Shown: positions 1,799 to 29,336, counted from the stretch's first letter. The stretch: DNA of 64,000 nucleotides from an uncultured virus (IMG/VR IMGVR_UViG_3300017963_004045) (IMGVR_UViG_3300017963_004045), one strand, 5' to 3'. Notes: generated by a model from the letters alone, not told the origin. Translations and numbers: made by a program.

Positions 1799-1834
1799 AA
1801 CCGCATTTAGATTACGGCAGTTACGGTTCTGCCC
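1799..1834 (-). ncRNA. Intergenic pseudoknot motif, copy 1
   Basis: GGGCAG-AACCGUAA-CUGCCG-UAAUCUAAAU-GCGGUU; the loop can pair with downstream GCGGUU. Confidence 0.65.
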
Positions 1835-1837
1835 ATG

Positions 1838-1869
1838 AGGAAATAAGAAGAGGTGGGGGCGAACCCCCA
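1838..1869 (-). terminator. Hairpin plus pyrimidine tract
   Basis: UGGGGG-UUCG-CCCCCA followed by CCUCUUCUUAUUUCCU, just after the stop of 1876-2088. Confidence 0.55.
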
Positions 1870-1875
1870 TTTACT

Positions 1876-2088
1876 TCACTCATGTATCTGTGGCGATGGG
1901 ATGTGTCCCATTATGAAGTTGTCATTCTGCCTGACGAATGCTTCCGCTTCACCTACGGTTGCGAAATGTAGGCAGATTTCCATATGTCTCGCATCATTGC
2001 CAGTATGAACGATGCGTGACTTAGCACCCATCGGCATCTTCGCCTGAGCCATCGATGGCATACCCAATATGGTGCATACTTCGACCAT
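1876..2088 (-). CDS. Hypothetical protein (70 aa)
   Basis: GGAGGTG 7 nt before ATG. Confidence 0.7.
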   Translation of the reverse strand: MVEVCTILGMPSMAQAKMPMGAKSRIVHTGNDARHMEICLHFATVGEAEAFVRQNDNFIMGHIPSPQIHE

Positions 2089-2137
2089 GTTTTTTCACCT
2101 CCTTTATGTTTTTCATACTCTTGCTGTCTTTCCATTG

Positions 2138-2177
2138 AACCGCTTTTTATCTGGTATGGGCAGTAGCGGTTCTGCCC
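2138..2177 (-). ncRNA. Intergenic pseudoknot motif, copy 2
   Basis: GGGCAG-AACCGCUA-CUGCCC-AUACCAGAUAAAAA-GCGGUU. Confidence 0.7.
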
Positions 2178-2202
2178 GTTGAGTTTATTGATGAAAACAC
2201 CA

Positions 2203-2358
2203 TTAGAAACTAATGATGACATCATCTTTAGGCTCTATAGTTATCAAGCCTCCTGCCTTACCGTTTGGCAGGGTGCAATGGGAGATAAAACCAGAAATGT
2301 TCGGGTTTCTCGAAATCCCTCTCTTAAGAGCCTCTATCGGTATACATACCTGTGGAAT
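2203..2358 (-). CDS. 51-aa protein with probable ATT start; paralog of 6334-6486
   Basis: GGAGGTG-AAAGAC-ATT; IPQVCIPIEALKRGISRNPNISGFISHCTLPNGKAGGLITIEPKDDVIISF*; not in the ORF track. Confidence 0.75.
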   Translation of the reverse strand: MPQVCIPIEALKRGISRNPNISGFISHCTLPNGKAGGLITIEPKDDVIISF

Positions 2359-2378
2359 GTCTTTCACCTCCTTTCAAT

Positions 2379-2528
2379 TTATGTCAACTCCTGAGTTATA
2401 GCCACATCTGGGCTAAATTTCTTTTGGACTATGAACCTACTGATAGCATGACAGAAATCCAACTGATGATTGTCGTCCTGATTGCAGAACTCCTTAGCCA
2501 TGCCTATCCATTCAGGTAACTCTGACAC
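2379..2528 (-). CDS. Possible 49-aa hypothetical protein
   Basis: Open frame from GTG filling the gap between adjacent genes (SELPEWIGMAKEFC...). Confidence 0.4.
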   Translation of the reverse strand: MSELPEWIGMAKEFCNQDDNHQLDFCHAISRFIVQKKFSPDVAITQELT

Positions 2529-2530
2529 CC

Positions 2531-2920
2531 TCATTCCTCCTTGAATCCTTGACCATATCCGAGTGGTTCTTTCAGTTCCATAGCCATCTCGTATTCTCTT
2601 CCTTCACGCTCTGCAATCATGTCCTCTGCCTTTGACCTATTAATATCGCTCTCCATCTTTACGAGCCATGTGTAATAGTCATCATGCTCAATCAGATGGT
2701 CAAGGGCAATCTTACAGGCGACATACTTATCATCAGTGTGCTCCATCTCGACCTTGATGCCCATCCTTAGTTGGTGCATATCAATTGAATCACAACTGTC
2801 CTTGCCATGAGTCTGGACATGCTTGTGGAATAAGCCCTGTCTGTATATCCCCATACCCGCATTTGTGAACTTCCGAACTGCATCGCACATATTCCTTTCC
2901 TCACGATAGTCATCAGCCAT
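2531..2920 (-). CDS. DUF5661-like protein
   Basis: QLRMGIKVEMEH...KIALDHLIEHDDYYTWL motif typical of this virus-associated family (recognised by eye). Confidence 0.7.
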   Translation of the reverse strand: MADDYREERNMCDAVRKFTNAGMGIYRQGLFHKHVQTHGKDSCDSIDMHQLRMGIKVEMEHTDDKYVACKIALDHLIEHDDYYTWLVKMESDINRSKAEDMIAEREGREYEMAMELKEPLGYGQGFKEE

Positions 2921-3147
2921 CAGAATCCAGCCTCCTTCAGTATTTTGTCAATCTCTGGATAGGAATGTGTTCCAAAGGAATGGAATCGCTTCTGTTCCTC
3001 TGCAAGTTTCCGAATCTTCTGGAGAGCCTGACCTCTTTTCTGGCACTCAATGTCATCAAGGTCGCACTCGTCCTCGAAACCCATCTTGCCCCTCATCTTC
3101 TTGATTCTGGTATCCTTTCTCTTCGCTCCGTTGGTCATTCTCCACAC
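2920..3147 (-). CDS. Hypothetical protein
   Basis: Tightly packed in the minus-strand operon. Confidence 0.55.
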   Translation of the reverse strand: MWRMTNGAKRKDTRIKKMRGKMGFEDECDLDDIECQKRGQALQKIRKLAEEQKRFHSFGTHSYPEIDKILKEAGF

Positions 3148-3458
3148 TCCTCTCCGTTGATAAATATGTCAACGCCATGCCTCTGTCCACTAAATTCAAT
3201 AATCTGTCTGAAGTCAGGCAAATTCTCCATTTTTCTCTCCTTCCCAAGCCAAGCGGGGTCATGATAGGCTACAACCTTCGGATTCTCAGGGTCAGACTGT
3301 CTTTCTGGTATGACAAGGCAACTGCGATACATGGGATAGAATCTGTCACCATCTTCATAGTGGAAATGGTGTGCCAAATCGCATATCAATCTTCCTGTGC
3401 GAAGTCCAGCCTCGTGCCAATCTCTCCTCAAATCCTCAAAGGTGTAGTCCTCTGGCAT
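3135..3458 (-). CDS. Hypothetical protein
   Basis: GGGGGATG SD-like site; operon packing. Confidence 0.65.
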   Translation of the reverse strand: MPEDYTFEDLRRDWHEAGLRTGRLICDLAHHFHYEDGDRFYPMYRSCLVIPERQSDPENPKVVAYHDPAWLGKERKMENLPDFRQIIEFSGQRHGVDIFINGEECGE

Positions 3459-3459
3459 G

Positions 3460-3678
3460 TCATCCCCCCGAAACGCACTTCTCGAATGCCCTCATCTGAT
3501 GAGCCTCATCCGTCAAACAAGCATTCACCTTTCTCTGTAGGTTCTCTTTAAGGTCACAAGCCCAAGTGAGACCATGCTGATGGCAATTATGATTGGCTAT
3601 CACCTGCTCGGCATAGAATCTATCGCAATCTTCCATCTGAGCCAACAGGTTCGGTAGCATGACCTCACAATCAGTCAC
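3460..3678 (-). CDS. Cys-rich hypothetical protein
   Basis: 72 aa, 6 Cys, operon packing. Confidence 0.55.
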   Translation of the reverse strand: MTDCEVMLPNLLAQMEDCDRFYAEQVIANHNCHQHGLTWACDLKENLQRKVNACLTDEAHQMRAFEKCVSGG

Positions 3679-4082
3679 TATATCACCCTCACGAGAACAT
3701 CATATGTTGCAATCAAATTCGGAGAAGCACCAATCTGGAACTCCAATGTATATTCTCCACGAACCAGTGCCTTAAAAGTCCATATCTCATACGGTCTCCC
3801 TGAGATATTAACACCCGTTGAAGTATTCCACTGGAAGGAACTAATCAACTCACCTTGATTGACAAGTTCCCATTGAGGTGGACTCGTCCTTTCTGGCAGG
3901 ACAATGGATACGGTCTCGTTGTAATTAACCGAGATTTGTTCCTGCGGTGCAGTCGTAATGAACGGAGAGGGTATCGGCTGATACAGATACATATATGTCA
4001 TCACAATCAAAGCAACGACAACAACGGCTGTAACTCCCTTCCAATCAGTGCATTTCTCTGGTGGGCATCTATCATTCACCAT
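3678..4082 (-). CDS. Membrane-anchored chagasin/I42-like protease inhibitor domain protein
   Basis: N-terminal TM, then ISV..ETVSIVLPE..W...G.PYEIWTFKALVRGEYTLEF pattern of I42 Ig-like inhibitors. Confidence 0.6.
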   Translation of the reverse strand: MVNDRCPPEKCTDWKGVTAVVVVALIVMTYMYLYQPIPSPFITTAPQEQISVNYNETVSIVLPERTSPPQWELVNQGELISSFQWNTSTGVNISGRPYEIWTFKALVRGEYTLEFQIGASPNLIATYDVLVRVI

Positions 4083-4786
4083 ATCGCCTCCTTTAACATA
4101 GGTTGAAGTTGTTCAGGTTCTAAATTAGGGGGAAGAGTTACCTTCTGGCGTTTGAGGGCAACAATCTTACGATTAGCCTCGTCCTGCCAAAAACCCACCC
4201 TGCCTCGACCCTCGCTCTTCCATAGGTCTGGTCTGAACAATGGGTAATAGTCACGACCAATGTTTTCCTCCTTGAGTTCGTCCCAATCAGAAGGGTCTGC
4301 TCTATCCCTGCCCCTTCTTATTATGAAACGACCTCCGTAGAGGTCACTACTGGTCACATTCGCCGAGACTCTCATATTGTCCATGACATCGTTGATTGTC
4401 TCATTGAAATCAACCCAGTCATACCAATTGAGAACTCTGCCTCTCCTCTGCCTTTCGCCAGATGGAGTAAGTCTTGGGGATAAATTATATCCATAATCGT
4501 CAACGAAATCATAAGTGAGTCTGCACCTAAGAAGGTCAATTCTTGTAGTATCGGTCTGAACATTACACTCTATACCTCTCTTTTCCAATTCCCTATCAAG
4601 TTTGGTAACGAACCTTCTCATTTCATGTGGCTTCATTATCAAGCAAACCTCATCATATGGATGGAAATCTGGATTGATTTTCCTCATAAGTGCCAGTCTG
4701 CGTCCAGTGAGACTCCTCTGCTCTTCAGGATACTTGAACTTGCACTTTCTAACACTCGTTACTTTTACTATGACACCACCCCACAT
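4076..4786 (-). CDS. Hypothetical basic protein
   Basis: 236-aa ORF; start uncertain. Confidence 0.7.
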   Translation of the reverse strand: MWGGVIVKVTSVRKCKFKYPEEQRSLTGRRLALMRKINPDFHPYDEVCLIMKPHEMRRFVTKLDRELEKRGIECNVQTDTTRIDLLRCRLTYDFVDDYGYNLSPRLTPSGERQRRGRVLNWYDWVDFNETINDVMDNMRVSANVTSSDLYGGRFIIRRGRDRADPSDWDELKEENIGRDYYPLFRPDLWKSEGRGRVGFWQDEANRKIVALKRQKVTLPPNLEPEQLQPMLKEAIW

Positions 4787-5577
4787 GCCTCGATGTCCTT
4801 CTTAGCGAGTTCTTGCATTCTATCTATGAAGTCATCAATCTCATATCCAGCGTTGAATATCGCTTCATAAACATCATCGTGTCTCCTGAACGCCATATCA
4901 ACACCAGTCTCTTCCAAGAAATCCCTAACAGAGTTTGTAACTTGTATGGATACTGGCTCAGTATCACTGCCATACATCTCCAAATCCCCAGTCCAACCGC
5001 AACAGTCACACTTCTTGCTCGGCATATAATTGAAAGAGCCATAGTGAGTGTAGGTCGCAAGACCCCCACAAGCAGGGCACTCAACCTTAGAGACTATAAG
5101 TTCACTATCTATGTATTGCAGACCTGTTAAATGACGAGTATTCTGGACACCAAAATCGTCCAAAGCCTCGCCTATGCTATGGATGACCTTTACAGCCTCG
5201 TCTGATATGTCCTTCTTATCGAGTTTTCTTTTAGCAACCTTCAGCCTACCCTTCACAGGCTTACTTCTCGTCTGGATGTCCTCGAAATACATCTTCTCAA
5301 ACTCCCAGATACGGACATCAAACTCAGTGGGAGATTCAACCTCCAGATAATGCACAAGATTGGGATTCTCATGCTCATGAATTGGATTAAGTAATTGGGA
5401 AACGACCTTGACATTAAGATTAGATTCAAACTTAACTGGCTTATCTTTTCCCCAGAACTGACATGAGACAATATTACCATCTCGTTCACACTGTTCTTCC
5501 TTGACGATGCACACACTATTGAAACGGAATTCCCCGTCTACTGCATCGCAGTCTCTTTTGGTAATTTTTGTTCCCAT
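4768..5577 (-). CDS. Zinc-ribbon-containing hypothetical protein
   Basis: Start MGTKIT after AGGAGG; CPACG...CDCCG. Confidence 0.7.
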   Translation of the reverse strand: MGTKITKRDCDAVDGEFRFNSVCIVKEEQCERDGNIVSCQFWGKDKPVKFESNLNVKVVSQLLNPIHEHENPNLVHYLEVESPTEFDVRIWEFEKMYFEDIQTRSKPVKGRLKVAKRKLDKKDISDEAVKVIHSIGEALDDFGVQNTRHLTGLQYIDSELIVSKVECPACGGLATYTHYGSFNYMPSKKCDCCGWTGDLEMYGSDTEPVSIQVTNSVRDFLEETGVDMAFRRHDDVYEAIFNAGYEIDDFIDRMQELAKKDIEACGVVS

Positions 5578-5585
5578 GTTTCCTC

Positions 5586-5912
5586 CTACGAAGGCACTCC
5601 ATAACCCACCAGATACCCGCCCCTTGCAACGAAGCAAGGGTGCGGGAAACTGTGTGGTCTTACGGATTCTGCCTTCGGCAACCGAAGAGCAATCTCGAAC
5701 TGTCCACCCTCTCCCAAGCCACTTCTGGGTTCTACTACGAGGACTTCCCAATCAGGGATTTCATCCCCAATTTCGGCATGTCCACCAATCCAGATGTTCG
5801 TATCATCATCAGATTCGATGTCCAGACTACCGCCTCCCCGACAAAAGGCATCGATTTGCTTTCGATACCTCTCTTCGAGAGAGCGTGGCACTTCATTGTT
5901 CAGACTGCTCAC
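5586..5912 (-). CDS. Hypothetical protein
   Basis: 108-aa ORF in the operon. Confidence 0.55.
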   Translation of the reverse strand: MSSLNNEVPRSLEERYRKQIDAFCRGGGSLDIESDDDTNIWIGGHAEIGDEIPDWEVLVVEPRSGLGEGGQFEIALRLPKAESVRPHSFPHPCFVARGGYLVGYGVPS

Positions 5913-5918
5913 TCTCGG

Positions 5919-6218
5919 TTATTTCTTCTTTTTCTTGGTAGTTGCTCTTGCAGATTTCGACTTTGGTTTCTTGACGACACACTTATCGCCAACGAGATTT
6001 CCACCGAAGCGTTCACAGGTCATCTTGTGGTAGTCTTTGTCCTGTATCTTGTTCATCATGTCCCGAATCCTGACAGCCTGTGGACGGTTTTCCCTGTCCC
6101 AGTTCTCTTTGTCAAGTTGGGTGCAACTGCCATCGATACAGCCGTAGACCTTCAGTGTCGCCCCTTCCTTGTGCTGGATAGGGTCGAATCTCAGCGTTGG
6201 CGTTCCTTCTTTGTCCAT
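5919..6218 (-). CDS. Hypothetical protein with Cys pairs and Lys-rich tail
   Basis: GGAGGTA SD; C-terminal KKPKSKSARATTKKKKK. Confidence 0.7.
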   Translation of the reverse strand: MDKEGTPTLRFDPIQHKEGATLKVYGCIDGSCTQLDKENWDRENRPQAVRIRDMMNKIQDKDYHKMTCERFGGNLVGDKCVVKKPKSKSARATTKKKKK

Positions 6219-6253
6219 ATCTTCTACCTCCTTTCAAGTTTTATTCTCCTTTG

Positions 6254-6289
6254 AACCACGATTTGTTCAGGGCAGTTGCGGTTCTGCCC
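6254..6289 (-). ncRNA. Intergenic pseudoknot motif, copy 3
   Basis: GGGCAG-AACCGCAA-CUGCCC-UGAACAAAUC-GUGGUU (G-U compatible change); preceded by hairpin AUGGAGGG-GCAA-CUCUCCAU. Confidence 0.7.
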
Positions 6290-6333
6290 ATTGAGATGGA
6301 GAGTTGCCCCTCCATTATGTATGATAATGTGTA

Positions 6334-6486
6334 TCACAGAGAGATAACAACATCATCACTTGGGTTAATCTGAATCAACCCACCAGTCTGTCCGTTAGGC
6401 AACACGCATTTCGCAATTTGTGGGGACACATTCGGATTCTTTATCGCCCCATCGATTGCCGTTGACGGAATACATATAGATGGTAT
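6334..6486 (-). CDS. 50-aa protein with probable ATA start; paralog of 2203-2358
   Basis: GGAGGTG-AAAAA-ATA; IPSICIPSTAIDGAIKNPNVSPQIAKCVLPNGQTGGLIQINPSDDVVISL*; not in the ORF track. Confidence 0.75.
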   Translation of the reverse strand: MPSICIPSTAIDGAIKNPNVSPQIAKCVLPNGQTGGLIQINPSDDVVISL

Positions 6487-6490
6487 TTTT

Positions 6491-6901
6491 TCACCTCCTT
6501 TCAAATTCTATGTCATAGTATGACTCTAATAGTTCTGCCTTCATCTTCTCCTTCTCTTCACGGCTTTTATCAGAATGATTGTCTACCAGTTCATTTATGT
6601 AGTCTTTTCTCATGCTGTCGAAATTGAAGTCAGATTTGCCAGACTTCATAAGACGCTCCGCTTTCCCAAAACAAGCCTTCCTCTCATCATATGAAAGACC
6701 TCTGGCACATTCCCGAATTACCAATGCCCTCTCATTCGGCATTTGAATCTTCCGAAATCCCTTCTTAGTGCGTAAATCAATTGAGAAAATCTCACCGCCC
6801 TTGATAGCCCATAGACCGCCCTTAACAATCCAAACATCATCAACCTCAGTCAGTTCCGCAGGGGTTATGTCCACTATCTCATCGCTATTTTTCTCAGGCA
6901 T
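6491..6901 (-). CDS. Hypothetical protein containing the PNERA..CA.G..ERK.CF module
   Basis: GAGGTGA SD; internal segment homologous to 16260-16421. Confidence 0.75.
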   Translation of the reverse strand: MPEKNSDEIVDITPAELTEVDDVWIVKGGLWAIKGGEIFSIDLRTKKGFRKIQMPNERALVIRECARGLSYDERKACFGKAERLMKSGKSDFNFDSMRKDYINELVDNHSDKSREEKEKMKAELLESYYDIEFERR

Positions 6902-6905
6902 ATTC

Positions 6906-7247
6906 TCACCTCATATCTCCTTTGACATCAGTTATCATCTTCTCAACCATCTTAATTTCATAATCAGTGACATCTCCAATTCTCCTCATGAAGTCCCTCT
7001 GCTTCTCAAGTTCCTTGAGGAAAGCCCTATCATCTGGACACTGGATAACATCAACATCGCCCTCAGTATTATGAACGAATGTTCTCACCTGCTTATTAAC
7101 CATTCCCCAATGATAGTCAGCGTTCACATACTGGTCATCATACCCCTTCTCTCTGAGGCGTTGGATATGTTCTATCCAGTTCTCTGTAGCGGATTGGTTA
7201 AATGTTCTCGTAAGCCTACATCCAGTTCCAAGCATTCTTTCCTCCAT
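6906..7247 (-). CDS. Hypothetical protein
   Basis: GGAGG SD before MEERML. Confidence 0.65.
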   Translation of the reverse strand: MEERMLGTGCRLTRTFNQSATENWIEHIQRLREKGYDDQYVNADYHWGMVNKQVRTFVHNTEGDVDVIQCPDDRAFLKELEKQRDFMRRIGDVTDYEIKMVEKMITDVKGDMR

Positions 7248-7249
7248 GT

Positions 7250-8291: not shown

Positions 8292-8300
8292 TTTTTCACC

Positions 8301-12995: not shown

Positions 12996-13355
12996 CTACT
13001 TCCTCCTCCCGACCTCAACGAACCCAACAGCGTCAGTTATCAAGCATCGCCCATCTGGTAGACAAACGATGTCGCCCATGCTCATTGATGTATGTTTCAG
13101 TCCTTTGGCTCTTATGTCTGCCCTTGCCTCTCCTCTGGGAGACCACATCTCTCCCTGCATCTTCATAAAGACTTCTTCTGGGTCTGCGAATGGAACATCA
13201 CCGACCTTTATATGAGTCTTGTCCAAATTATTGACATCGACCTTCTCCAGACAAGCCTCACGATTAAGAAGGAATGTGCAATCTGGGTCATTGAGGTAAT
13301 AGACTTCGGTTTCTCCACCGCCATATTTATCTTCGAGCCAACCCATATCAAGCAC
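12996..13355 (-). CDS. YodL-like domain protein
   Basis: EEVFMKMQ...P....HTSMSMGDIVCL resembles the YodL motif (E.IF..FN...GHSLSVSDVV). Confidence 0.6.
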   Translation of the reverse strand: MLDMGWLEDKYGGGETEVYYLNDPDCTFLLNREACLEKVDVNNLDKTHIKVGDVPFADPEEVFMKMQGEMWSPRGEARADIRAKGLKHTSMSMGDIVCLPDGRCLITDAVGFVEVGRRK

Positions 13356-16532: not shown

Positions 16533-16913
16533 CTAATTATCAGGCTTATGGCTATCCCTCTTGTCGCCATTATAGATATTGGAGATTTGCACTCTCCTCA
16601 TGATGAAATCGAAAATCATTTTCGTGCCTTCAGGCTCAACCTTCTCATGTCCATCAATCAAGTCTGCAATCTCGCTGATATGTTCCGCTATAGATTGTAT
16701 ACAATCCTTGCAGGTGAGGACAGGGTGGGGTGAATAGGAGGTAGTCCTTTCAGAGTTGTGTTCCATGACAACACCGACTTGAACGAGTTTATGAATGCCA
16801 TCTCTGATGTTCGCCCCATGCTCCCCAGTCCTCTTTGCAATCTTGTAGGCAGTTATCGGCTTGTCGGATTCGATTAATGTTGATAATATCTTGACTTCCC
16901 TTTGCTTGAGCAT
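16533..16913 (-). CDS. Winged-helix transcription regulator
   Basis: EVKILSTLIESDKPITAYKIAKRTGEHGANIRDGIHKLVQVGVV wHTH pattern. Confidence 0.75.
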   Translation of the reverse strand: MLKQREVKILSTLIESDKPITAYKIAKRTGEHGANIRDGIHKLVQVGVVMEHNSERTTSYSPHPVLTCKDCIQSIAEHISEIADLIDGHEKVEPEGTKMIFDFIMRRVQISNIYNGDKRDSHKPDN

Positions 16914-16925
16914 AATCAACACCCG

Positions 16926-17944: not shown

Positions 17945-18010
17945 AATAACAAGACCTCCAATTGTCTTTGCAAGACCTGTATAAACTCCTTGTAATATAA
18001 ATCTTTCTAT

Positions 18011-18029
18011 TTATACGCACAATTCTGGA
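18011..18029 (-). promoter_or_regulatory. Upstream motif TCCAGAATTGTGCGTATAA before a TATA box
   Basis: Near-identical to 45831-45849 and 16507-16525; followed by ATAGAAAGATTTATATT. Confidence 0.65.
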
Positions 18030-20456: not shown

Positions 20457-20457
20457 G

Positions 20458-21720
20458 TTATCGAACCTCCGAATAAATCTTTTTATCGTAAACAACCAGT
20501 GCCATTGCGAATATACCTGCAATTATACTGGCATAGAGGAAATTGTAATCATATACGCTGATACTTCCAAACTCTTGAGGGATTGAATCCGCAGTGCTAT
20601 TTATATACACCATCATAACATCGAAATAGACTTCGGACTCCACCGTATGAACCTCATTCCAAACAAGGATATAGTCCTCACCATCATAATACATATCTGG
20701 ACTAAAATGTGGTAGGAAAGAGAACTCATCCCTAACGGAGAATGTCAGATTTGTCTGGCTATCCCAGACCAAGACTCTCCAATATTCTCCAAACTCTGCC
20801 CAAGCGACCAAATCCCCGCTAACAGTTGGAGTAACACTGGTATTATCCTTTCCTGTCTCATCAACAAACCAATCTACACGCATCGTCTCATTATCGTGCA
20901 AATCATGGAACATGATAGAATGATTCTGATAATAACCGCACCTCCAAACAACATGGTCTCCCCATATTGTAGCCTCATTATTGTATGCCACACCACCTAT
21001 AGAAGAAAATATATCTGTAGTTTGATTTTCGGAAATGTCATACACGGTCATGTTATTATAATGAGTAACAAACTCATCGCCCTCGTAAACTATAATATCA
21101 TCATAAATATCCCAGAAATAAGGACGGACATCATCTGATATAGGGACATTGGTTAAACCAGTGCCATCAAGATTACAATAAGTAACATTCCTTCTCGTTC
21201 CCGTATTCCAACTACTAAATGCAATCAAGTCACCGTAAATCTTTGGATAGGAATACCAGTATCCCCATGTAGTATTGTCAATTAATATTGTGCTATTTGT
21301 GGACATATCATGAACGAAAATAGCATCAACATTGCCACCCGTCTTATTATTGAAAACAACGGTTTCCTCATATATCTGAGGGACAGTGTAGGCATCGCTA
21401 TAGTTCCTCAATATAGTCCCGTTTTGCCAAGTTGAAAGTTGACGAAACGAAATCCATGTGTGTGTGAAGTTACTATCCATCCAAACTATATAATCATCCC
21501 ATACCGAAGGATAATTACTTATTACAGTTGGAAAAGTGCCAGTATTGTTCATTACCATTATCGGGTCTGACACGGTGAATTTATCATCATCTACCAAAGT
21601 AACACCCGTTGAAACTGGGTGGAACTGCTCTGATATGTATAGACCATTGAGTGCAATATAGAGAACGAACCCCACACAAACGAGAACCCCTAACCAGAGC
21701 ATCAACCTCTTATTTTCCAT
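20458..21720 (-). CDS. Beta-propeller surface protein, class B
   Basis: PSVWDDYIVW / PKIYGDLIAF blades; IPQEFGSISVY; many N-x-S/T sequons. Confidence 0.85.
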   Translation of the reverse strand: MENKRLMLWLGVLVCVGFVLYIALNGLYISEQFHPVSTGVTLVDDDKFTVSDPIMVMNNTGTFPTVISNYPSVWDDYIVWMDSNFTHTWISFRQLSTWQNGTILRNYSDAYTVPQIYEETVVFNNKTGGNVDAIFVHDMSTNSTILIDNTTWGYWYSYPKIYGDLIAFSSWNTGTRRNVTYCNLDGTGLTNVPISDDVRPYFWDIYDDIIVYEGDEFVTHYNNMTVYDISENQTTDIFSSIGGVAYNNEATIWGDHVVWRCGYYQNHSIMFHDLHDNETMRVDWFVDETGKDNTSVTPTVSGDLVAWAEFGEYWRVLVWDSQTNLTFSVRDEFSFLPHFSPDMYYDGEDYILVWNEVHTVESEVYFDVMMVYINSTADSIPQEFGSISVYDYNFLYASIIAGIFAMALVVYDKKIYSEVR

Positions 21721-22256
21721 CAAAGCACCCCCAGACCTATAGCATCAGCCATATAGATGGAGAAAGAACCAATAGAGAATGCCACGATTATGCCCACAAC
21801 TACATTGAGTCTTTGACTTCTGAACATCTCGTGCTTGTAGAAAGAATTGAAACCTATCCACATGAACTGGTAAAAGATAAATCCATATATAAACCAGACG
21901 ATGTTGTTAAGGGTAGGAATCGGGTCATCCGACAGACCAATCACCCAGAATGTGAAGGCAGTGCTGAACAGACTTAGGATTGCAATAAGAATCTCTCCCC
22001 ATAGATTACTTGCTCTGGTTTCCAATGTATACCATTTCTCAGTGATAATTCCAAAACCTACGAACCCAGTAGTGATGATTAGAGTAACCACCGAGACACC
22101 AAACAAGGCACTAATGAACCCTTCATCCAGTGTAATTTCCTGCATCTTGAAATAGAGCAAAACAAGGAAAGTAACGACTGGCATGAAATAAACTGCACTG
22201 GGCTTGTTGCCCACATCTTTGACAGCCATTATTTCATAGTCGTTACCGTTTGCCAA
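21720..22256 (-). CDS. Small polytopic membrane protein, paralog of 1262-1783
   Basis: About 5 TM; stop overlaps the propeller start. Confidence 0.8.
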   Translation of the reverse strand: MANGNDYEIMAVKDVGNKPSAVYFMPVVTFLVLLYFKMQEITLDEGFISALFGVSVVTLIITTGFVGFGIITEKWYTLETRASNLWGEILIAILSLFSTAFTFWVIGLSDDPIPTLNNIVWFIYGFIFYQFMWIGFNSFYKHEMFRSQRLNVVVGIIVAFSIGSFSIYMADAIGLGVL

Positions 22257-22262
22257 GTGCTA

Positions 22263-23471
22263 TCACCACCAACTCAATATCCAATCACTTGCTATACGAG
22301 TCACGAAGTCCACGAGTGCAATCAAAAAGAATATGATTGCTATGGTGTCCATGTGATTGGTCAGGAACTCATTCTTTACAAGAGCACCTTCCTTCCTTGA
22401 ATCAATGTATAGCCAAGCAAATAGGATGCCAAGAACTGTGAAGAGCAAAGGGAAATACAGGTATTGCGTCTCATCCTCTTCTATGACAATAGGTAGAACC
22501 TCAATGCGAACAGTATCTATGTCCACAGCCCCATCATTATCCTCAACTCTCAGACTTGCGATGTAGATTCCCTCATCATAGAATTCATATGTGAATTCTT
22601 CTCTGTAGAAAGTATCACCATCAATATCCCAAGTATAGTTGACGATATAACCATCTTCATCGATTCCCTCGCCATAGAACTCAACCTCCTGCCCGACATA
22701 TGCAGATACCTTATCCGCTTCTGCGAAGGCATATGGCTGAAGGTTTACAACACCACTGAAATTGACGAAAAAACCGTCTGTGATTACATCAAATCCATTG
22801 GATACAGCATCGAACACTACCTCATATTTACCAGATTGAATCTGATATATTGTCCATGTAACAGATTCTTCACTACCATTTGTAGGGGGGAATGTGACAT
22901 CTTTCTGAATCATGTTGTATGTTGAGCCATCTGGTCTCTGAATTATTGGAGTAATATGACAAGTCGTATCTGAATATCCATTACCTACCAGAGTATATGT
23001 CAGAGTAACAGGCTCATTTTGTTCGACAATAACGGGTGTTACTTCGGCATGTGCTGATAGAGTCCAGTATACCCTGAAACTACCGACCTCATCGTATGTT
23101 GGGGAGTTGTAGGAATTATTGTAATATACCGTGTAATTGCCAATCATGGGGGGTGTGTAAGACCAGTTAATCAATATTGTCTCTGCCTGATTGTTCTGAA
23201 CCGTAGCCCAATTCTTAGTGGTTAGGTCAACCTTTGTGCCATTCGGCAATACGACATCTACATAGACCTGACCATTCCTGTTAGGCTCTGTAGATGTATC
23301 ACTGAACTCATATTGCAAAGTCACAGGCTCATCAATTATCCAGTCACAAGAACTTGTCTCTTGATGGTCTGAGAAGTATGTTGCACTGGCAAGAGTGCTA
23401 AACAACACAGTCATAGACACGAAGGCACAAATCAATACAATAGTTTTCTTTATCATGTTGTATTCCTCCAA
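22263..23471 (-). CDS. PKD/Ig-domain surface protein with C-terminal TM anchor
   Basis: Signal peptide; VGQEVEFYG.G.DEDG.IV.YTWD...Y.F..EG.Y...LRVEDNDG PKD signature; 2 C-terminal TMs. Confidence 0.85.
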   Translation of the reverse strand: MEEYNMIKKTIVLICAFVSMTVLFSTLASATYFSDHQETSSCDWIIDEPVTLQYEFSDTSTEPNRNGQVYVDVVLPNGTKVDLTTKNWATVQNNQAETILINWSYTPPMIGNYTVYYNNSYNSPTYDEVGSFRVYWTLSAHAEVTPVIVEQNEPVTLTYTLVGNGYSDTTCHITPIIQRPDGSTYNMIQKDVTFPPTNGSEESVTWTIYQIQSGKYEVVFDAVSNGFDVITDGFFVNFSGVVNLQPYAFAEADKVSAYVGQEVEFYGEGIDEDGYIVNYTWDIDGDTFYREEFTYEFYDEGIYIASLRVEDNDGAVDIDTVRIEVLPIVIEEDETQYLYFPLLFTVLGILFAWLYIDSRKEGALVKNEFLTNHMDTIAIIFFLIALVDFVTRIASDWILSWW

Positions 23472-23477
23472 TGAATC

Positions 23478-24149
23478 TCATATCCCAAACAACTCACCCC
23501 GTATTCCGTAATCTTCAACTTTCTCAAGGAAGCCTCTCCTCTCAACCCTATGCAAAGAATCCCATTCTTCCATAAGGATTTCTCTCCAATGTTCTCGTGC
23601 CAACTGAGACTGTAATGCCTCAAATCGCCCACAGAAGCACTTCTGCGGAGCGAACTTCGGGAACTTCCTAAGTTTGTTTATGTAGAACCTGACTTTCTTA
23701 GCCCAAACCTCCCTGCATTCAGTATCATCAGGTGAGCACTCTCTGAGCCTTGAACGAGACTTATCAAGCCTGTTATTGAGGCGAGTAACGGTCATGGGTC
23801 TCCTCATATTGCATCTGTGAAGGTAACTCTTCCCAGTTTCAGGGTCAGAACTTCTAACTTCAGTCACTAACCATTGGGTATACGGGACACCCTCCGAATC
23901 AAGATAATCCAAACCCGCATCCTCTATATAGATGGTTGCCTCACTGGGGGATACTGCTGGAACACATATCTGGACACCAACTCTATAAGGCAATTGAGTG
24001 GCTACATTGATATAACCAATATCCTCCAAATCCTCTTCGACTTCCTCCCACTCAATATCATCTATATCTGGGGGCGGGGGGAACTCGAAGTCCTCATGCT
24101 CTTCGCCTTTGAGCCAGTCCATCTCCTTTTCTTTCGTCTCCGTCATCAT
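23478..24149 (-). CDS. Hypothetical protein
   Basis: GGAGTGA SD; acidic N-terminus and basic Cys-containing C-terminus. Confidence 0.7.
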   Translation of the reverse strand: MMTETKEKEMDWLKGEEHEDFEFPPPPDIDDIEWEEVEEDLEDIGYINVATQLPYRVGVQICVPAVSPSEATIYIEDAGLDYLDSEGVPYTQWLVTEVRSSDPETGKSYLHRCNMRRPMTVTRLNNRLDKSRSRLRECSPDDTECREVWAKKVRFYINKLRKFPKFAPQKCFCGRFEALQSQLAREHWREILMEEWDSLHRVERRGFLEKVEDYGIRGELFGI

Positions 24150-24156
24150 TCACTCC

Positions 24157-25410
24157 TTATTTCCAGAAAGCATAGTAACCACCGCCACCTTCGGGGTCTA
24201 CAAGGTATGCAATACTGAAAGCCAATAGAGTCAAACCGATTATGATTGTCAGGAATATCCAGTTGGTGTTATAAACTGTTTCGGACTCGAACTCCTGATA
24301 TATGTCTGCACCAGTCGGCTGATATGTCTGAACCCAAAGGTCATCACTGAATGTATCCATCGTTCTACCATAATAGGCTATAACCCCGTCATGTATACTT
24401 CCCCCATCATAGGCGACAGTATCGTTTGTCAAATGAAAATCATACTCACCGAACAATTCGGAAAAAGATAGGTCTAACATAGCCATCTGAGTATCTATCC
24501 CTATCCCCTCCGACTCATCCACATAGATAATCAAATCCTCATAAATATCTGGATAACGAGCCATAAAGTTAGAATTCCATTCATCATCAGTGATTATGGT
24601 ATAATACCTACCCTCATTCAAGTCATAATATTCAAGAGTCCACACCCCCTCCCTGAATGTATGATAGACTATCTTATCATCCCAAATCTGTGGCATTCGA
24701 CAGTCTACACCCCAGACAAGTTGCGTCTCCTCATCAGCGTCAATATCATACATCCAGAGTTCATAGACACCACCTGCTGAATAATTATAGACCTCATAGA
24801 CAATGATATTATCATAAATCTGCGGATACTGACCGTATTCAAACAATATACAATCATGGAACTTAGTAGAGGAATTAGCAGAAATATCGAAATACCAAAG
24901 GTCATCATTAGGATCCTGATATGCGATGATGTCGCCCCAGATTGAAGGAAAGCCATAGTCATCCCTTGTTCCAAACCAATGAACAGGCTTATCGACTCCA
25001 TCATCTAAGTCCATATAATGAACATCATAAACAGAGTTCCTATCATCATACCATGTGACATAATTTTGGTATATGTCTCCAACCAATTCATCGACACCAG
25101 ATTTGTTTGCAATTGAAGTATACGAATTATCAGTCATATTATAAACCCAAACCTCTCTATCGAATGGAATTACAAATCGTTGTTTCTCATTGTAAAGAAC
25201 GAGGCTATCCCAGATTATAGGTCTTGATTGGTCATTGTTAACATTTGTAGCATTTATTCTAATAGGCTCTCCGAACTCCCAAAGACCATCTTCACTGAGG
25301 TAATCATTTGTCGTCAGTATTTCCTGAGTGAACGGGTTAGACAGCATTATAAGAATCAATAATGCGACTAAGAGAATTGCACCATACATGTATATTTTTT
25401 TCCTTTCCAT
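24157..25410 (-). CDS. Beta-propeller surface protein, class B (TIGR04275-like blades)
   Basis: Start MERKKI; VTWYDDRNSVYDVHYMDL, PSIWGDIIAY; IYQEFESETVY before the TM. Confidence 0.85.
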   Translation of the reverse strand: MERKKIYMYGAILLVALLILIMLSNPFTQEILTTNDYLSEDGLWEFGEPIRINATNVNNDQSRPIIWDSLVLYNEKQRFVIPFDREVWVYNMTDNSYTSIANKSGVDELVGDIYQNYVTWYDDRNSVYDVHYMDLDDGVDKPVHWFGTRDDYGFPSIWGDIIAYQDPNDDLWYFDISANSSTKFHDCILFEYGQYPQIYDNIIVYEVYNYSAGGVYELWMYDIDADEETQLVWGVDCRMPQIWDDKIVYHTFREGVWTLEYYDLNEGRYYTIITDDEWNSNFMARYPDIYEDLIIYVDESEGIGIDTQMAMLDLSFSELFGEYDFHLTNDTVAYDGGSIHDGVIAYYGRTMDTFSDDLWVQTYQPTGADIYQEFESETVYNTNWIFLTIIIGLTLLAFSIAYLVDPEGGGGYYAFWK

Positions 25411-26818
25411 TATATCACCCACCAGTATAATAGAATTGCACCTATTATCACGGCACTGATAATGATTCCAATCCAACTGCCCATCTTCTTGATATGCTCA
25501 AACTTGTAGAAATAATATTCTGCAACGAGCAGTCCACCAACAATGAATATGATAGCCACGATATAGACCCAATAATCCTCAATAAATTGCTCCGCAGGAC
25601 TCGGCTCAACAACATCTCCATCGTCAATAACTCCAGTGGTTGATAAGGTCAACATGTATACATCTTTGTCGCCCTGCCCTGTGGGGCTATCTCCTGCCGT
25701 GAACACCAGAGTATCATTGTAGACATCGGAATATCCAATTTGCTGGAAGTCCCAACCAATATCATGGAAATCATCATGAGCGAGATTATATACGAGAAGT
25801 TCAGACTCTCTCTCATGTTCAGTCGTTTCAATGATACGCTTCATCGTCACATAATCTCCAAAGGCACTCTGAACAGTGTATATCTTTCCATCAGTAACGG
25901 GGTCACTCTGCCAAACCAAGTTCGTAACCCCAGTATCAACAGAATAAGTGTATAGTGACATCCCATACGAACCAGAAGTGCCATTACGCTTCGTATACAC
26001 AACGGTATTCTCGTCAGCAAAGTATCCGAAACTAATTTGTTCTTCGCTTGGGGCACTATCTATGCTTTTAACTGTATCAGTCTGATGATTATAATGATAG
26101 AGAACATAGGAATCTCCCTGATTAATATGAAGAAGTAGTTGGTAGCCATGTATGTCAGCGATATAGGAATTGGAATAATCGAACTCCTCAATTTCTCTAA
26201 GGTCTGTCTCCAGTCCATTATCTAAATTATATAATACTAATCTGCTTGTCGTTCTCCATCCAGCATATATGTTGCCAACACCCATAACTAAAACATATGC
26301 ATGTTCATCATCATCAATTACGGTAGAGGAATAATCAGTAAAATTATATATCAGAGGCTCTTGGTATTCTTGTTCATCTTCCTCTTGGAATATAAGGTAA
26401 TTGCCAGATATGTGTGGGTATCTCTGTGTGACACTACCGAGCCGAATACCGAACTCACCCTCAGACGAGATATTGTATCCATAGATGTCCCAATTATTAT
26501 TCCTGTAATCATCCCAGATTACTCTATCGCCCCAAATAGATATGGTGGTTTGCTCCCTTACAGCGTTGCATATGCATACAGGCTCGGAAGCGGATAAAGT
26601 AACACCCGTTGGAACAATCTCCTGCCTTGTCATGGGGTCTAAGACTATGACCCCCAGTAGCAACACGGCTAATAGCACGATTACGAACCTGTAAGTTGTC
26701 GATGAACCGTTCATTACATCACCCACCAGTATAATAGAATTGCACCTATTATCACGGCACTGACAATGATTCCAATCCAACTGCCCATCTTCTTGATATG
26801 CTCAAACTTGTAGAAATA
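25408..26818. repeat. 107-bp direct repeat (25408-25514 and 26712-26818), 2 mismatches
   Basis: Encodes the shared C-terminal anchor FYKFEHIKKMGSWIGII.SAVIIGAILLYWWV, the stop codon and the next start. Confidence 0.95.
25410..26714 (-). CDS. Beta-propeller surface protein, class A (N-TM plus two C-TM)
   Basis: Start MNGSST; IWGDRVIWDDYRNNNWDIYGYNI TIGR04275-like blade. Confidence 0.85.
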   Translation of the reverse strand: MNGSSTTYRFVIVLLAVLLLGVIVLDPMTRQEIVPTGVTLSASEPVCICNAVREQTTISIWGDRVIWDDYRNNNWDIYGYNISSEGEFGIRLGSVTQRYPHISGNYLIFQEEDEQEYQEPLIYNFTDYSSTVIDDDEHAYVLVMGVGNIYAGWRTTSRLVLYNLDNGLETDLREIEEFDYSNSYIADIHGYQLLLHINQGDSYVLYHYNHQTDTVKSIDSAPSEEQISFGYFADENTVVYTKRNGTSGSYGMSLYTYSVDTGVTNLVWQSDPVTDGKIYTVQSAFGDYVTMKRIIETTEHERESELLVYNLAHDDFHDIGWDFQQIGYSDVYNDTLVFTAGDSPTGQGDKDVYMLTLSTTGVIDDGDVVEPSPAEQFIEDYWVYIVAIIFIVGGLLVAEYYFYKFEHIKKMGSWIGIIISAVIIGAILLYWWVI

Positions 26819-28006
26819 CCACTCTGCGATTACGAGAACGGTAATGAGAGCGACAACCCCTGCAATTGTAATCCAGTTATTTGAAATGAACTCCTCAACC
26901 CCTTCCTGCGGTTCTAAATCCTCACCGTCAGGAACACCATCAGTCTCCTCTTCTTCTCCAAATAGGTAGACACGATAAATATCGGTATCTCCTTCATCGC
27001 TTATCCCAGTGAAGTAAGCGTAGTTTCCTTCAATAGTGACTCCAGAACCACCATATTCTCGCTCACCAGAGAGCATCATAGTGACATTTTCCTCGTCAAG
27101 ATTATATGACATCAAAGAAGCCTCTAAAGAAGTATAATTATGCCACACAACCCATTCAGAACTAATGTCAAGAACCCCATAACTACTGGGTCTAACACCA
27201 ACTATAGAGATTGTTTTCTCAATGCCACCCGCCTCAATAACATGAATATCTTTTACGGTCTGGTCTATATCAAAGAAGGCAAGATGACCATATTGATTAT
27301 CGAGAGCCATCACATGACCATAATTGGGAGTGTATACATCCTCTATGAAATAAGGTTTATCAGACATGGAAAGCGTGAGAACCCCTTCTCTACCGCCCTG
27401 ATAGGTGTTTGACAATTCGCCATAGCAAGTAAAGACCGAGTTACGATACTCGAATCTGTCAATGTCGTTCATATAACTGCTTCTAAACAATTCAGTGTCA
27501 ACATCAGTAAATGGATTGTATTTATGAATATAATCCTGAAATGAGTAATACACATAGTATTCCCAGACATCATAATCATGGAAATTAACACATAATGGAA
27601 TCTTATAAGACCATGATGTATGATTATTAATGAAATAACCTTCAAGATATATATCTGTGTCAATATTCTTCCTCCAGATAACATGTGTTGAATATATCTT
27701 AGGTCTGTATTCTGGGTATATCGTATTAGCAATGACGAATTCCTCTCCAGATGTCAAGTTATACCCATAGATGTCCCAATTGCCGTTCCTGTAATCCTGC
27801 CAGACAAGATAGTTTCCATCTGAAACCAAACTCATCTGGTCTCTATCGGCATCAATCAGCAATTCGGCATCATAGATAGTCTCGGATGTTGACTGAAGGC
27901 TGTGGATTTCCTGTTGTGCAAACGGATTTGTAACCAACAGACCTACGAATATCACTCCCAAGAATACGATTATGAATTTGTATGTCTGACCCCTGTTATC
28001 GCTCAT
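26714..28006 (-). CDS. Beta-propeller surface protein, class A
   Basis: LVWQDYRNGNWDIYGYNLTSGEEFVI. Confidence 0.9.
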   Translation of the reverse strand: MSDNRGQTYKFIIVFLGVIFVGLLVTNPFAQQEIHSLQSTSETIYDAELLIDADRDQMSLVSDGNYLVWQDYRNGNWDIYGYNLTSGEEFVIANTIYPEYRPKIYSTHVIWRKNIDTDIYLEGYFINNHTSWSYKIPLCVNFHDYDVWEYYVYYSFQDYIHKYNPFTDVDTELFRSSYMNDIDRFEYRNSVFTCYGELSNTYQGGREGVLTLSMSDKPYFIEDVYTPNYGHVMALDNQYGHLAFFDIDQTVKDIHVIEAGGIEKTISIVGVRPSSYGVLDISSEWVVWHNYTSLEASLMSYNLDEENVTMMLSGEREYGGSGVTIEGNYAYFTGISDEGDTDIYRVYLFGEEEETDGVPDGEDLEPQEGVEEFISNNWITIAGVVALITVLVIAEWYFYKFEHIKKMGSWIGIIVSAVIIGAILLYWWVM

Positions 28007-29280
28007 CCTACCAACCCCCAGTATATCAAAATGATTGCAATTACAATCGCACTGACAATGAGACCTATATTGAATCGCTCATTAATCTTCTTAGTGTGTT
28101 CCCAATTATAGAAATACCCCTCTACAAAGAGAAGAACAGCCATAACCAGTATGATAGTAGCAATGTAAATCCAGTTCTCACTTAGAAACTCAGATACCGC
28201 ACCATCTTCCCCGTCTGGTGGTGTCGGGCTTGTAGTGTAAGTGTATGGAACATAGTAAAGGTCGAGTTCGGCAGAATCGCTCTCATGCCTTGCATACGAG
28301 ATGATTCCATCATATAAATCGAAAGTATGAACTCTGTAATCATCGACCACCGAATATATGTTATCCGTATCGATGTCATAAACCTTAAGTGCTTGATTGG
28401 TAGCCAATTCCCTAAACAAAGCCAAATTGCCCCACAAACAGACACCAGAATCGTAATAGAAGTATGGGTTGTCATCGAAGAGTATCGAGGTCTGAGCAGT
28501 AGATATTTCATATATCTCTAAACTGGCATTAGTTGTATCAGGATTCCTTGTTACATAAAGAACACAGTCCTCGTATATGTCACACGAATGGTATGAATCG
28601 GTTGGTGGAGACTCTATGTCTATTATTGTGTCCTCGTCAATGTCATATAGATAATAGGTAGCATCATCCCTGTTGGCAATGACCACATAATCCTCCCATA
28701 TATGCCACTCTTGAGGAGAGTCTATGATTGAAGGCTTAATCTGGAAACTCGTATTAGCCAAAATATCATGGCAGATAAGACCACTGGAATTTTCGTAGAT
28801 TAAAATATTATCATACAATTTCGGATTATTAACTTGGGAATCATAATCATCATGCCAAATTATGTATGTGGTAAGATTATTCAGGAACTTAACCTTAACA
28901 AAGTTTCTGTCAGGTGTAGAATCAGAATATCTCCAGACAACAGTATTGTTCTGTATGAATGGTTCATTCTCATAATCATTTGCGTTGGAAATCATAAGAT
29001 TATTGTCAGTCGAAATATTGTATCCTCTTATGTCATAATGGGTATCAGAGGCTGAAGAGCGATACACTATGATGTCGCCCCAAATGGATGGCTCTCTCTG
29101 TTGCCTCAATCCATCATCGATTAGGACTTCATCCCCCAGATTGAAATTCAGGGTAGCCCCAGTTTGTGCATTCATTCTCTGCTCTTCAATGATAGGATTG
29201 ACTATAATAATAGCCAATAGGAATACAGCCAATGCTATGATTATTACCCTCATTCCTGCTCTCGTGTCTCCATCCGTCAT
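28003..29280 (-). CDS. Beta-propeller surface protein, class A
   Basis: QREPSIWGDIIVY...DIRGYNI; two C-terminal TMs. Confidence 0.85.
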   Translation of the reverse strand: MTDGDTRAGMRVIIIALAVFLLAIIIVNPIIEEQRMNAQTGATLNFNLGDEVLIDDGLRQQREPSIWGDIIVYRSSASDTHYDIRGYNISTDNNLMISNANDYENEPFIQNNTVVWRYSDSTPDRNFVKVKFLNNLTTYIIWHDDYDSQVNNPKLYDNILIYENSSGLICHDILANTSFQIKPSIIDSPQEWHIWEDYVVIANRDDATYYLYDIDEDTIIDIESPPTDSYHSCDIYEDCVLYVTRNPDTTNASLEIYEISTAQTSILFDDNPYFYYDSGVCLWGNLALFRELATNQALKVYDIDTDNIYSVVDDYRVHTFDLYDGIISYARHESDSAELDLYYVPYTYTTSPTPPDGEDGAVSEFLSENWIYIATIILVMAVLLFVEGYFYNWEHTKKINERFNIGLIVSAIVIAIILIYWGLVG

Positions 29281-29300
29281 GGTATCGACCTCGTTTTTTT

Positions 29301-29336
29301 AACCGCTTTTACTCAAGGGTTGTTGCGGTTCAACCC
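29301..29336 (-). ncRNA. Intergenic pseudoknot motif, copy 4
   Basis: GGGUUG-AACCGCAA-CAACCC-UUGAGUAAAA-GCGGUU; two compensatory stem changes relative to copies 1-3. Confidence 0.7.

Follow-up and report, generated by a model that had tools for sequence, protein, structure and literature searches.

A four-copy candidate RNA pseudoknot in front of unrelated genes of an uncultured virus

Why does a virus carry the same short sequence in front of four genes whose products are unrelated to one another, and at which level, DNA or RNA, would this sequence act? The question is raised by the uncultured virus IMGVR_UViG_3300017963_004045, of which we analyzed a stretch of 64,000 nucleotides (64 kb; the window) belonging to a contig of 126,730 bp; all counts given here come from this one genome. 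Four copies of a motif of 36-40 nt are present on the minus strand, at 1799-1834, 2138-2177, 6254-6289 and 29301-29336, and they read exactly as in an earlier note, which had taken them for a new RNA pseudoknot placed between a hairpin and the next ribosome-binding site. The motif is a genuine, new and apparently lineage-restricted repeat that lies far beyond chance, and it belongs to a familiar general kind, the small structured leader element of a virus. Our tentative preference is that the four copies are a cis-acting RNA pseudoknot and constitute a shared operator read by one trans-acting factor.

The repeat and its potential to pair

All four copies lie on the gene strand within the left 30 kb of the window. 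Their aligned consensus is cAAU GGGCAG AACCGCAA CUGCCC - 10 or 14 nt - GYGGUU MAA, the general form being cAAU-GGGNNG-AACCGYWA-CNNCC(C)-N10/14-GYGGUU-MAA, and 23 of the 44-48 nt of the alignment are invariant. The conserved block reaches 3 nt further in the 5' direction (MAY) and 3 nt further in the 3' direction (MAA) than first described. The copies are composed as follows:

1799-1834, minus strand: copy 1; 5' strand of stem 1 at 1829-1834 (5 bp plus a G.G), loop AACCGUAA at 1821-1828, 3' strand of stem 1 at 1815-1820, linker of 10 nt at 1805-1814, 3' strand of stem 2 GCGGUU at 1799-1804; the loop contributes a U-G wobble.
2138-2177, minus strand: copy 2; stem 1 GGGCAG/CUGCCC, loop AACCGCUA, linker of 14 nt, 3' strand of stem 2 GCGGUU at 2138-2143.
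6254-6289, minus strand: copy 3; stem 1 GGGCAG/CUGCCC, loop AACCGCAA, linker of 10 nt, 3' strand of stem 2 GUGGUU (a G-U wobble).
29301-29336, minus strand: copy 4; stem 1 GGGUUG/CAACCC (two pairs altered on both sides), loop AACCGCAA, linker of 10 nt, 3' strand of stem 2 GCGGUU.

The 20-nt core is identical between copies at 14-19 of its 20 positions; the linker (10, 14, 10 and 10 nt in copies 1-4) shows an identity of 36-64%, which is not above that of unrelated flanks. The pattern GGGNNGAACCGNNACNNCC retrieves the four copies at 0 mismatches together with one unrelated site at 2 mismatches. In 100 dinucleotide-preserving shuffles the pattern occurs, with up to 2 mismatches allowed, 0.5 times on average; no shuffle reaches the observed 5. 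A covariance model of the four copies, a check that the earlier note had proposed, was run unfiltered over both strands of the window and scores them at 53.1-61.4 bits (57.6, 53.1, 61.1 and 61.4 bits for copies 1 to 4); the runner-up, within coding sequence, scores 12.7 bits. Pattern, shuffles, covariance model and genomic context agree on a non-random, sense-strand motif between a hairpin and the next Shine-Dalgarno (SD) sequence, as had been claimed.

All four copies can be drawn with the two helices of an H-type pseudoknot, and 47 of 48 cells hold standard pairs. The exception is copy 1, where a G.G at the foot of stem 1 leaves this stem with 5 bp; copies 2-4 have 6 bp. The double compensatory change described for stem 1 is present (C-G and A-U become U-A and U-A), but both altered pairs belong to copy 4 only, and 29 of 500 column shuffles equal the observed pairing statistics. 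A control in which the partners were slid by 1-3 columns pairs at only 14-47%. In stem 2, two pairs are turned into G-U, one in copy 1 and the other in copy 3; as previously noted, these loop variants are wobbles on the sense RNA only. On the opposite strand they would be C.A mismatches, which mildly favors the sense RNA.

The predicted energy is -8.1 to -11.5 kcal/mol for the stem-1 hairpin and -5.7 to -7.6 kcal/mol for the stem-2 duplex. When pseudoknots are left out of the folding, copies 2 and 3 still show stem 1, and in copy 4 it is stem 2 that appears, as a hairpin. Perfect 6-bp hairpins with loops of 6-10 nt occur 124 times per strand in the window. Only in motif copies and at one other locus (52438, plus strand) is such a loop matched, 6-28 nt downstream, by 6 nt of Watson-Crick complement. 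This locus (52438-52485, GCCCGAA...UUCGGGC) is situated in the divergent region between the leftward and the rightward gene blocks.

Pseudoknot geometry makes it unlikely that a loop 1 of 0 nt could span a 6-bp stem 2. For this reason stem 2 probably comprises 5 bp, with the first A of the loop unpaired and a 2-nt junction (AA or UA) between the stems, and the A-rich 3' end of loop 3 (10-14 nt) could line the minor groove of stem 1. Drawn as it is from four related sequences, the pseudoknot is a plausible and the most economical reading of this anatomy; it is supported by the way in which it would account for the interleaved inverted repeats, the linker of variable length, the compensatory change and the wobbles confined to the sense strand.

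Hairpins, leaders and genes around the copies

The window is densely filled, with minus-strand open reading frames (ORFs) from ~52 kb down to position 1 and plus-strand ORFs beyond. Gaps of at least 25 nt between minus-strand genes are few, and the motif copies fill four such gaps. A hairpin precedes each copy, as the earlier note had it (four of four, that of copy 2 being an A/U-rich 9-bp stem), and an SD-led gene follows each. The features around the copies are these:

1854-1869, minus strand: hairpin upstream of copy 1; GGGGG-UUCG-CCCCC core, then a C/U-rich tail; terminator- or stabilizer-like.
2198-2218, minus strand: hairpin upstream of copy 2; A/U-rich 9-bp stem with a UUU loop, then UUUU; overlaps the stop codon of the upstream small gene.
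6296-6315, minus strand: hairpin upstream of copy 3; 8-bp stem with a GCAA loop.
29366-29384, minus strand: hairpin upstream of copy 4; 7-bp stem with a GUAAA loop, then a pyrimidine-rich tract of 29 nt.
1262-1783, minus strand: gene after copy 1, P0001 (173 aa); multi-pass membrane protein as judged from sequence; SD GAGAGG 4 nt after the motif.
1876-2088, minus strand: gene after copy 2, P0002 (70 aa); strong SD GGAGGU.
5919-6218, minus strand: gene after copy 3, P0003 (99 aa); basic, with a lysine-rich C-terminus; strong SD GGAGGU.
28003-29280, minus strand: gene after copy 4, P0004 (425 aa); membrane-anchored; first gene in the run 24157-29280, which belongs to a family of eight paralogues; no clear outside homologue.
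2203-2367, minus strand: small gene upstream of copy 2, P0009; paralogue of P0008.
6334-6504, minus strand: small gene upstream of copy 3, P0008; paralogue of P0009.

Pyrimidine- or U-rich tails stand behind the upstream hairpins of copies 1, 2 and 4, and the hairpins of the four loci have no common sequence. The four downstream proteins are mutually unrelated and none of them has a Pfam family, be it that of a single-stranded DNA-binding protein (SSB) or any other (0 of 4). An alternative ORF of 90 aa (1953-2225) crosses copy 2; of the two, the ORF of 70 aa, which has the strong SD in front of it, is more likely to be the gene.

The leaders behind GYGGUU, in which the start codon follows at 15, 49, 35 and 20 nt in copies 1-4, are A-rich, contain runs of the UUAAA/UAAAA type and have an SD at their end. 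Of 75 crudely assigned gene starts, 47 are preceded by an SD-like motif, which argues that the leaders are transcribed and used. When the motif is masked in constrained folds, leader pairing is weak and local or specific to single copies, with no pairing common to all four.

Two short ORFs begin close behind the motif and overlap the start of the main gene, and both may be due to chance: one at 6112-6237 (minus strand; UUG start 17 nt after copy 3, 41 codons) and the other at 2018-2116 (minus strand; AUG start 22 nt after copy 2, ~32 codons). A start codon 16-22 nt past the knot in every copy was not used as a signal, chance providing it in about 0.3 of such windows. A conserved peptide across the motif was rejected as well (an ATG is found in every copy except copy 2, and its frames run for 2-16 codons before they stop), and so was the pairing of the SD with an anti-SD pyrimidine tract on the far side of the knot, which is predicted for copies 1 and 3 only.

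The small proteins P0008 and P0009 (~55 aa) share 53% identity and two conserved Cys. Judged by these paralogues the loci of copies 2 and 3 descend from one old duplication, and since the upstream small genes are paralogous, the contexts of the two copies are not independent. Between copies 2 and 3 the core is identical at 19 of 20 positions, the adjoining duplicated gene at 54.6% of its DNA and the spacers at 38.6%. No family was found for P0008/P0009 in Pfam (E up to 1) or PHROG. An AlphaFold2 model of P0008, built from its alignment with P0009, has a beta-alpha-beta-beta order and a predicted local distance difference test score (pLDDT) of 67.7; Foldseek returned no match for it below E 0.6, the best being a ribosomal protein chain at a non-significant E of 0.63. 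The proposal that the two proteins are AbrB-like binders was dropped on these same grounds (no Pfam match, the pLDDT and the Foldseek result).

A possible shared operator and its rivals

In the scheme that we tentatively prefer, the motif would be transcribed within the minus-strand mRNA, after the hairpin with which one cistron closes and ahead of the next cistron's ribosome-binding site. It would adopt a compact H-type fold with a G+C-rich stem 1 of 6 bp, a stem 2 (5-6 bp) formed by (A)ACCGY with GYGGU(U), and a loop 3 of 10-14 nt. One trans-acting factor, most likely an RNA-binding protein encoded by the virus, would recognize the knot in the four leaders and thereby coordinate the translation and/or the stability of four otherwise unrelated transcription segments downstream of an attenuating hairpin. 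At copies 1 and 4, with the SD 4-9 nt away, the factor could act directly; at copies 2 and 3, where the SD is farther, it may spread along the A-rich leader in the manner of gp32 from the T4 gene 32 pseudoknot. The adjacent hairpins have no sequence in common, whereas the motif keeps its 23 invariant positions, which argues for sequence-specific reading and not for structure alone. Conservation in stems and loops alike would fit a sequence-specific partner or a precise tertiary fold, and a generic stabilizer only poorly.

The gene 32 operator of T4 and RB69 is a pseudoknot of ~28 nt that seeds protein binding, which then spreads along an A/U-rich leader to the ribosome-binding site (PMC535899). 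The sequence found here has the same plan: a compact candidate knot at the 5' side of the leader, and behind it a less structured, A-rich stretch of the UAAA type that runs into the ribosome-binding site. Spreading of this kind would accommodate the different distances between knot and SD. The T4 operator exists in one copy and serves the autoregulation of an SSB gene, whereas the motif stands before four mutually unrelated genes, none of which recognizably codes for an SSB. The two elements also differ in that they share no sequence similarity, that a 2-nt junction separates the stems of the motif, and that its binding by a protein is what we infer.

Several points weigh against a shared operator. 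The distance from motif to main SD ranges from 4 to ~35 nt, and because of this variation no one steric mechanism suits all copies. A full six-pair stem 2 leaves a loop 1 of 0 nt, which is sterically unlikely. The base of the covariation is thin, with four sequences from one genome and all double changes in copy 4; besides the 29 shuffles of 500 that match, related copies can beat shuffles without any structure. No homologue of the motif was found in the collections searched, and hence no covariation comes from outside these four copies. The window proteins yielded no candidate for RNA binding, the P0008 model being without a significant match, and no RNA run is among the six sequencing runs listed for the stretch. 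Finally, the order of terminator, conserved element and gene is also the classic layout of a terminator-promoter-gene unit.

This layout is the starting point of the alternative that survives best, although we consider it unlikely: a signal at the level of DNA, used by a virus-specific factor as an operator or as a promoter of unconventional type, whose inverted repeats would be bound by dimeric proteins or extruded as a hairpin. Hairpin-type DNA promoters exist, the early promoters of phage N4 being an example. The succession of terminator, signal, SD and gene is typical of terminator-promoter-gene units, P0002 appears self-contained between copy 2 on one side and a terminator on the other, and sequence is conserved in both blocks of the motif. 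Promoters are expected to show a TATA box ~26 nt, or a -10 box ~7 nt, upstream of a start that itself lies before the SD. No canonical promoter, be it archaeal (transcription factor B recognition element and TATA box) or bacterial (-35/-10), was seen at the four units, where no TATA or -10 box is consistently placed; a 21-mer containing a TATA sequence marks three other units, which can be counted in favor of a special promoter at these four.

The 21-mer, CCAGWATTRTGCGTATAAWTA, occurs on the minus strand at 16504-16524, 18008-18028 and 45828-45848, in three other intergenic gaps (0 expected by chance). Each of its copies has another A/T-rich, TATA-like box ~10-25 nt further on, and the first lies directly downstream of a weak TrmB-like gene (16533-16922). 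It is probably the canonical promoter and/or operator of the element. These promoter-like units look quite different from the motif, a contrast that would favor RNA as the level at which the motif acts.

Further evidence points in the same direction. One inverted repeat is interleaved with the other, and in copy 2 the outer pair is spaced 4 bp differently from centre to centre; a linker varying in length and sequence would be tolerated by a loop and not by a rigid two-block DNA site. The double change in stem 1 retains complementarity and not base identity, and the changes in stem 2 are wobbles in the sense RNA only. In copy 1 the SD starts 4 nt past the motif, and the region 24-30 nt before that SD contains no sequence of TATA type, so that the SD-bearing leader starts within or before the motif and no room is left for a TATA-dependent start in between. 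A scan for sigma-70-type promoters found 48 sites, which is not above the 38.4 +/- 6.0 expected by chance, and no RNA polymerase-like or N4-type protein was detected among the ~75 ORFs scanned, which cover about half of the contig. We infer from these features that the motif would act as RNA.

If it does so, it might do so on its own. A self-acting pseudoknot would then be a 5' boundary or stabilizer, with the polycistronic transcript cut near the conserved AAU/GGG junction or with 5'-to-3' decay by RNase J (in archaea, aRNase J) halted at the knot; the upstream hairpin would guard the 3' end of the preceding segment, and the result would be selective RNA processing and stabilization. We regard this reading as reasonable and give it a low probability. 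It draws on the coupling of hairpin and motif at four of four sites, on the stable G+C-rich fold and on the conserved nucleotides directly 5' of stem 1. A block that depends on structure only should, however, drift in sequence as the adjacent hairpins do, yet 23 positions are invariant, and a plain 5' hairpin would be enough against RNase J. The exonuclease block raised in the earlier note is possible and leaves the conservation of the motif, next to unconserved hairpins, unexplained.

RNase III sites of phage T7 are intercistronic processing signals. Signals of this kind resemble the motif in being structured, multi-copy, co-oriented and intergenic and in partitioning the polycistronic transcripts of phages or operons. 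They differ from it as long irregular hairpins recognized by their shape, the motif being a short, sequence-conserved pseudoknot candidate at which cleavage is hypothetical. Selective RNA processing and stabilization is a concept established in bacterial operons (PMC10667835). The exonuclease-resistant RNAs (xrRNAs) of plant viruses offer another comparison. Those of class 3 (xrRNA-D) consist of P1, a conserved L1, P2 and a conserved L2B, with a pseudoknot between L2B and the 3' strand (PMC6299227). Like the motif they are small viral elements with an apical loop that pairs downstream, they can be intergenic and upstream of coding regions, and they are defined by loop conservation plus helix covariation (PMC6299227). 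The P1-L1-P2 architecture is absent from the motif, which has one uninterrupted 6-bp stem and an 8-nt loop with neither an internal loop nor a P2. The exonuclease against which xrRNA-D acts is the eukaryotic Xrn1, and membership of the class would call for a pseudoknot-dependent block of such a 5'-3' exoribonuclease in vitro.

A bolder version of the boundary, which we regard as distinctly improbable, holds that the motif is a new, compact (36-40 nt), autonomous viral pseudoknot that halts RNase J/aRNase J at a defined site, as a modular restart signal after each terminator, and so lets the downstream cistron persist as stable mRNA fit for translation. Its conservation would then reflect a tertiary fold (an A-minor triplex of loop 3 with stem 1) and not a protein partner.

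Very little credence can be given to a functionless remnant, that is, a duplicated intergenic segment that has merely persisted. Copies 2 and 3 did arise along with a duplicated gene, but their core has stayed almost unchanged while gene and spacers diverged to the extent given above, and copies 1 and 4 lie in unrelated contexts.

Slimmer still are the chances of a small pseudoknot riboswitch that would time four viral operons by a metabolite or a signaling nucleotide. The preQ1-I, SAM-II and guanidine-III riboswitches are small H-type pseudoknots in which the hairpin loop pairs downstream and the third loop is A-rich. The motif shares with this kind a size of 30-45 nt, the topology, the pairing of loop with downstream sequence, the A-rich loop 3, strong conservation and a place in the 5' leader near the SD. 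A preQ1-I riboswitch would be expected to overlap the SD with the 3' strand of its P2 and to accompany genes for queuosine or preQ1. The motif matches no riboswitch model of Rfam, preQ1-I (RF00522) included, even at E values as high as 10, and its stem 2 leaves out the SD, with GYGGUU 4 to ~35 nt upstream of that SD. The downstream genes are unrelated and non-metabolic, their proteins being without a Pfam family. Copy 1 has just 15 nt to the AUG and no terminator, and so there is no expression platform; stem 2 is strong by itself, and a ligand therefore seems unneeded. The riboswitch suggested in the earlier note fits poorly on all these counts.

Least credible of all is a released small RNA (an antitoxin of the ToxI type, as suggested in the same note, or else a decoy resembling a solitary CRISPR repeat or some other processed RNA of ~36 nt), for which the ~36-nt unit, the pseudoknot potential and the viral setting would speak and which is unlikely because the copies are dispersed (343 to 23,000 nt apart) and the linker is variable: ToxI is a tandem array of ~36-nt repeats before a toxN-like gene, and here there is no array and no ToxN or Cas-type family among the ORFs covered by general scans; nor does a linker of changing length and low identity resemble CRISPR repeats, which are near-identical over their full length and often adjoin an array, and for which no dedicated tool was run.

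Relatives, virus and host

The earlier note did not recognize the motif as a known family, and this holds. Rfam 15 gave 0 matches at gathering thresholds over the whole window, and scans by E-value around the four copies gave no family common to them. IMES-2 (RF02035), a marine environmental RNA, aligns weakly to copy 3 when the GCAA hairpin before it is included (18.5 bits, where the gathering score is 54.7) and not at all to copies 1, 2 and 4; membership was rejected, since the one match lies far under the threshold and is due mostly to the non-conserved hairpin. An attC-like site was rejected too, the R''/R' consensus not being matched.

Searches for relatives by pattern returned nothing convincing. 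In viral_contigs the two-block pattern has three matches, all G+C-rich with non-complementary stems, the pattern of block 1 only has three chance matches, and the promoter-like 21-mer CCAGWATTRTGCGTATAAWTA has none. In metagenome_contigs the two-block pattern matches at least 119 loci, which are G+C-rich; among the matches listed, at least 21 pass a two-position pairing check, none has an A-rich context, and the best-looking two (L098 and L112) are inside long ORFs. The window's own contig is not among these matches listed, and the scan is not evidence that the motif is absent from metagenomes. An AT-weighted pattern matches 22 times in genome_contigs, always in bacteria, with a full stem 1 in 0 of 22 and 5 of 6 pairs at best. 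By blastn, copy 3 has only a 24-nt chance match in phages and no match in plasmids. DNA contigs of four runs aligned to 1200-7000 show no variant within the motifs and no relatives.

Proteins led no further. Neither P0004 nor a 534-aa protein has close relatives in viral_contigs, and among 5.8 billion proteins P0004 finds itself and one weak match (E 8.4e-5). A tblastn search of phages with the 534-aa and a 435-aa protein gave no match. No related contigs were found through a DUF6744 protein or through the P0008/P0009 alignment. A DUF5661 protein led to 80 viral loci (1.16 Mb), which contain no motif; the top model score there is 17.9 bits (E 0.41) at a coding site. DUF5661 is a very widely conserved viral domain, with relatives in 110 IMG/VR contigs. 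Inside its gene, at 2726-2773, pieces of 33-45 nt of many unrelated contigs from the same metagenomes align at 80-95%.

We read the element as a novel tailed-virus-like one, going by its genes. The ~75 ORFs scanned have almost no family matches, and no transfer RNA genes were found in the window. An archaeal host, as assumed earlier, is hinted at by an AAA+ ATPase, whose best match in the phage database is Acidianus tailed spindle virus (32.9%), and by the DUF6744 protein, which matches Halovirus HCTV-5 in phage records; Rhizobium phages follow the former closely at ~30%, and the Atlas clusters of DUF6744 are mostly Uroviricota. Other family matches are a weak TrmB/DUF7342, DUF7715 (for which an Atlas look-up returned nothing), DUF5661, a CAAX protease and an M10 peptidase. 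The stretch is present nearly whole in three DNA runs from sediment or seawater.

Further features of the window were noted alongside. At 52026-52079 (minus strand) lies a hairpin resembling a bacterial-style intrinsic terminator (UCGUCC-UGAAAA-GGACGA followed by UUUUU), which bears on the host domain; it sits just upstream of the gene of the 534-aa protein (50421-52025), past the stop of the preceding small ORF. A family of eight paralogues of ~420-460 aa with N- and C-terminal membrane anchors and 16-30% identity extends over 19149-35743 (minus strand). Upstream of the starts of two paralogues, at 25477-25498 and 26781-26802 (minus strand), stands an identical 22-nt sequence, AGCAUAUCAAGAAGAUGGGCAG. 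It includes AUGGGCAG, which is like the 5' end of the motif, without the remainder of it, and is probably a conserved coding junction of the paralogues. A protein of 936 aa at 13348-16158 (minus strand), extremely rich in lysine and glutamate, repeat-like and without a family match, is a candidate for a tape-measure protein, a scaffold or an internal component of the virion. At 38405-42017 (minus strand) two large membrane proteins (648 and ~570 aa) are encoded side by side; they overlap by ~60 nt, and their N-termini look alike by eye.

Altogether, the motif presently stands as one lineage-restricted candidate with thin covariation and a well-defined target for probing, and not yet as a discovery. 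Its interest lies in the fact that post-transcriptional control in the viruses of uncultured microbes, archaeal ones especially, is almost unknown. If the favored reading is true, a multi-copy pseudoknot that marks several cistron starts would be a compact and portable regulatory part, and it would provide a handle on the factor that reads it. If instead the motif blocks RNase J, the xrRNA principle would extend beyond eukaryotic viruses, and prokaryotic viruses would have their first xrRNA-like element.

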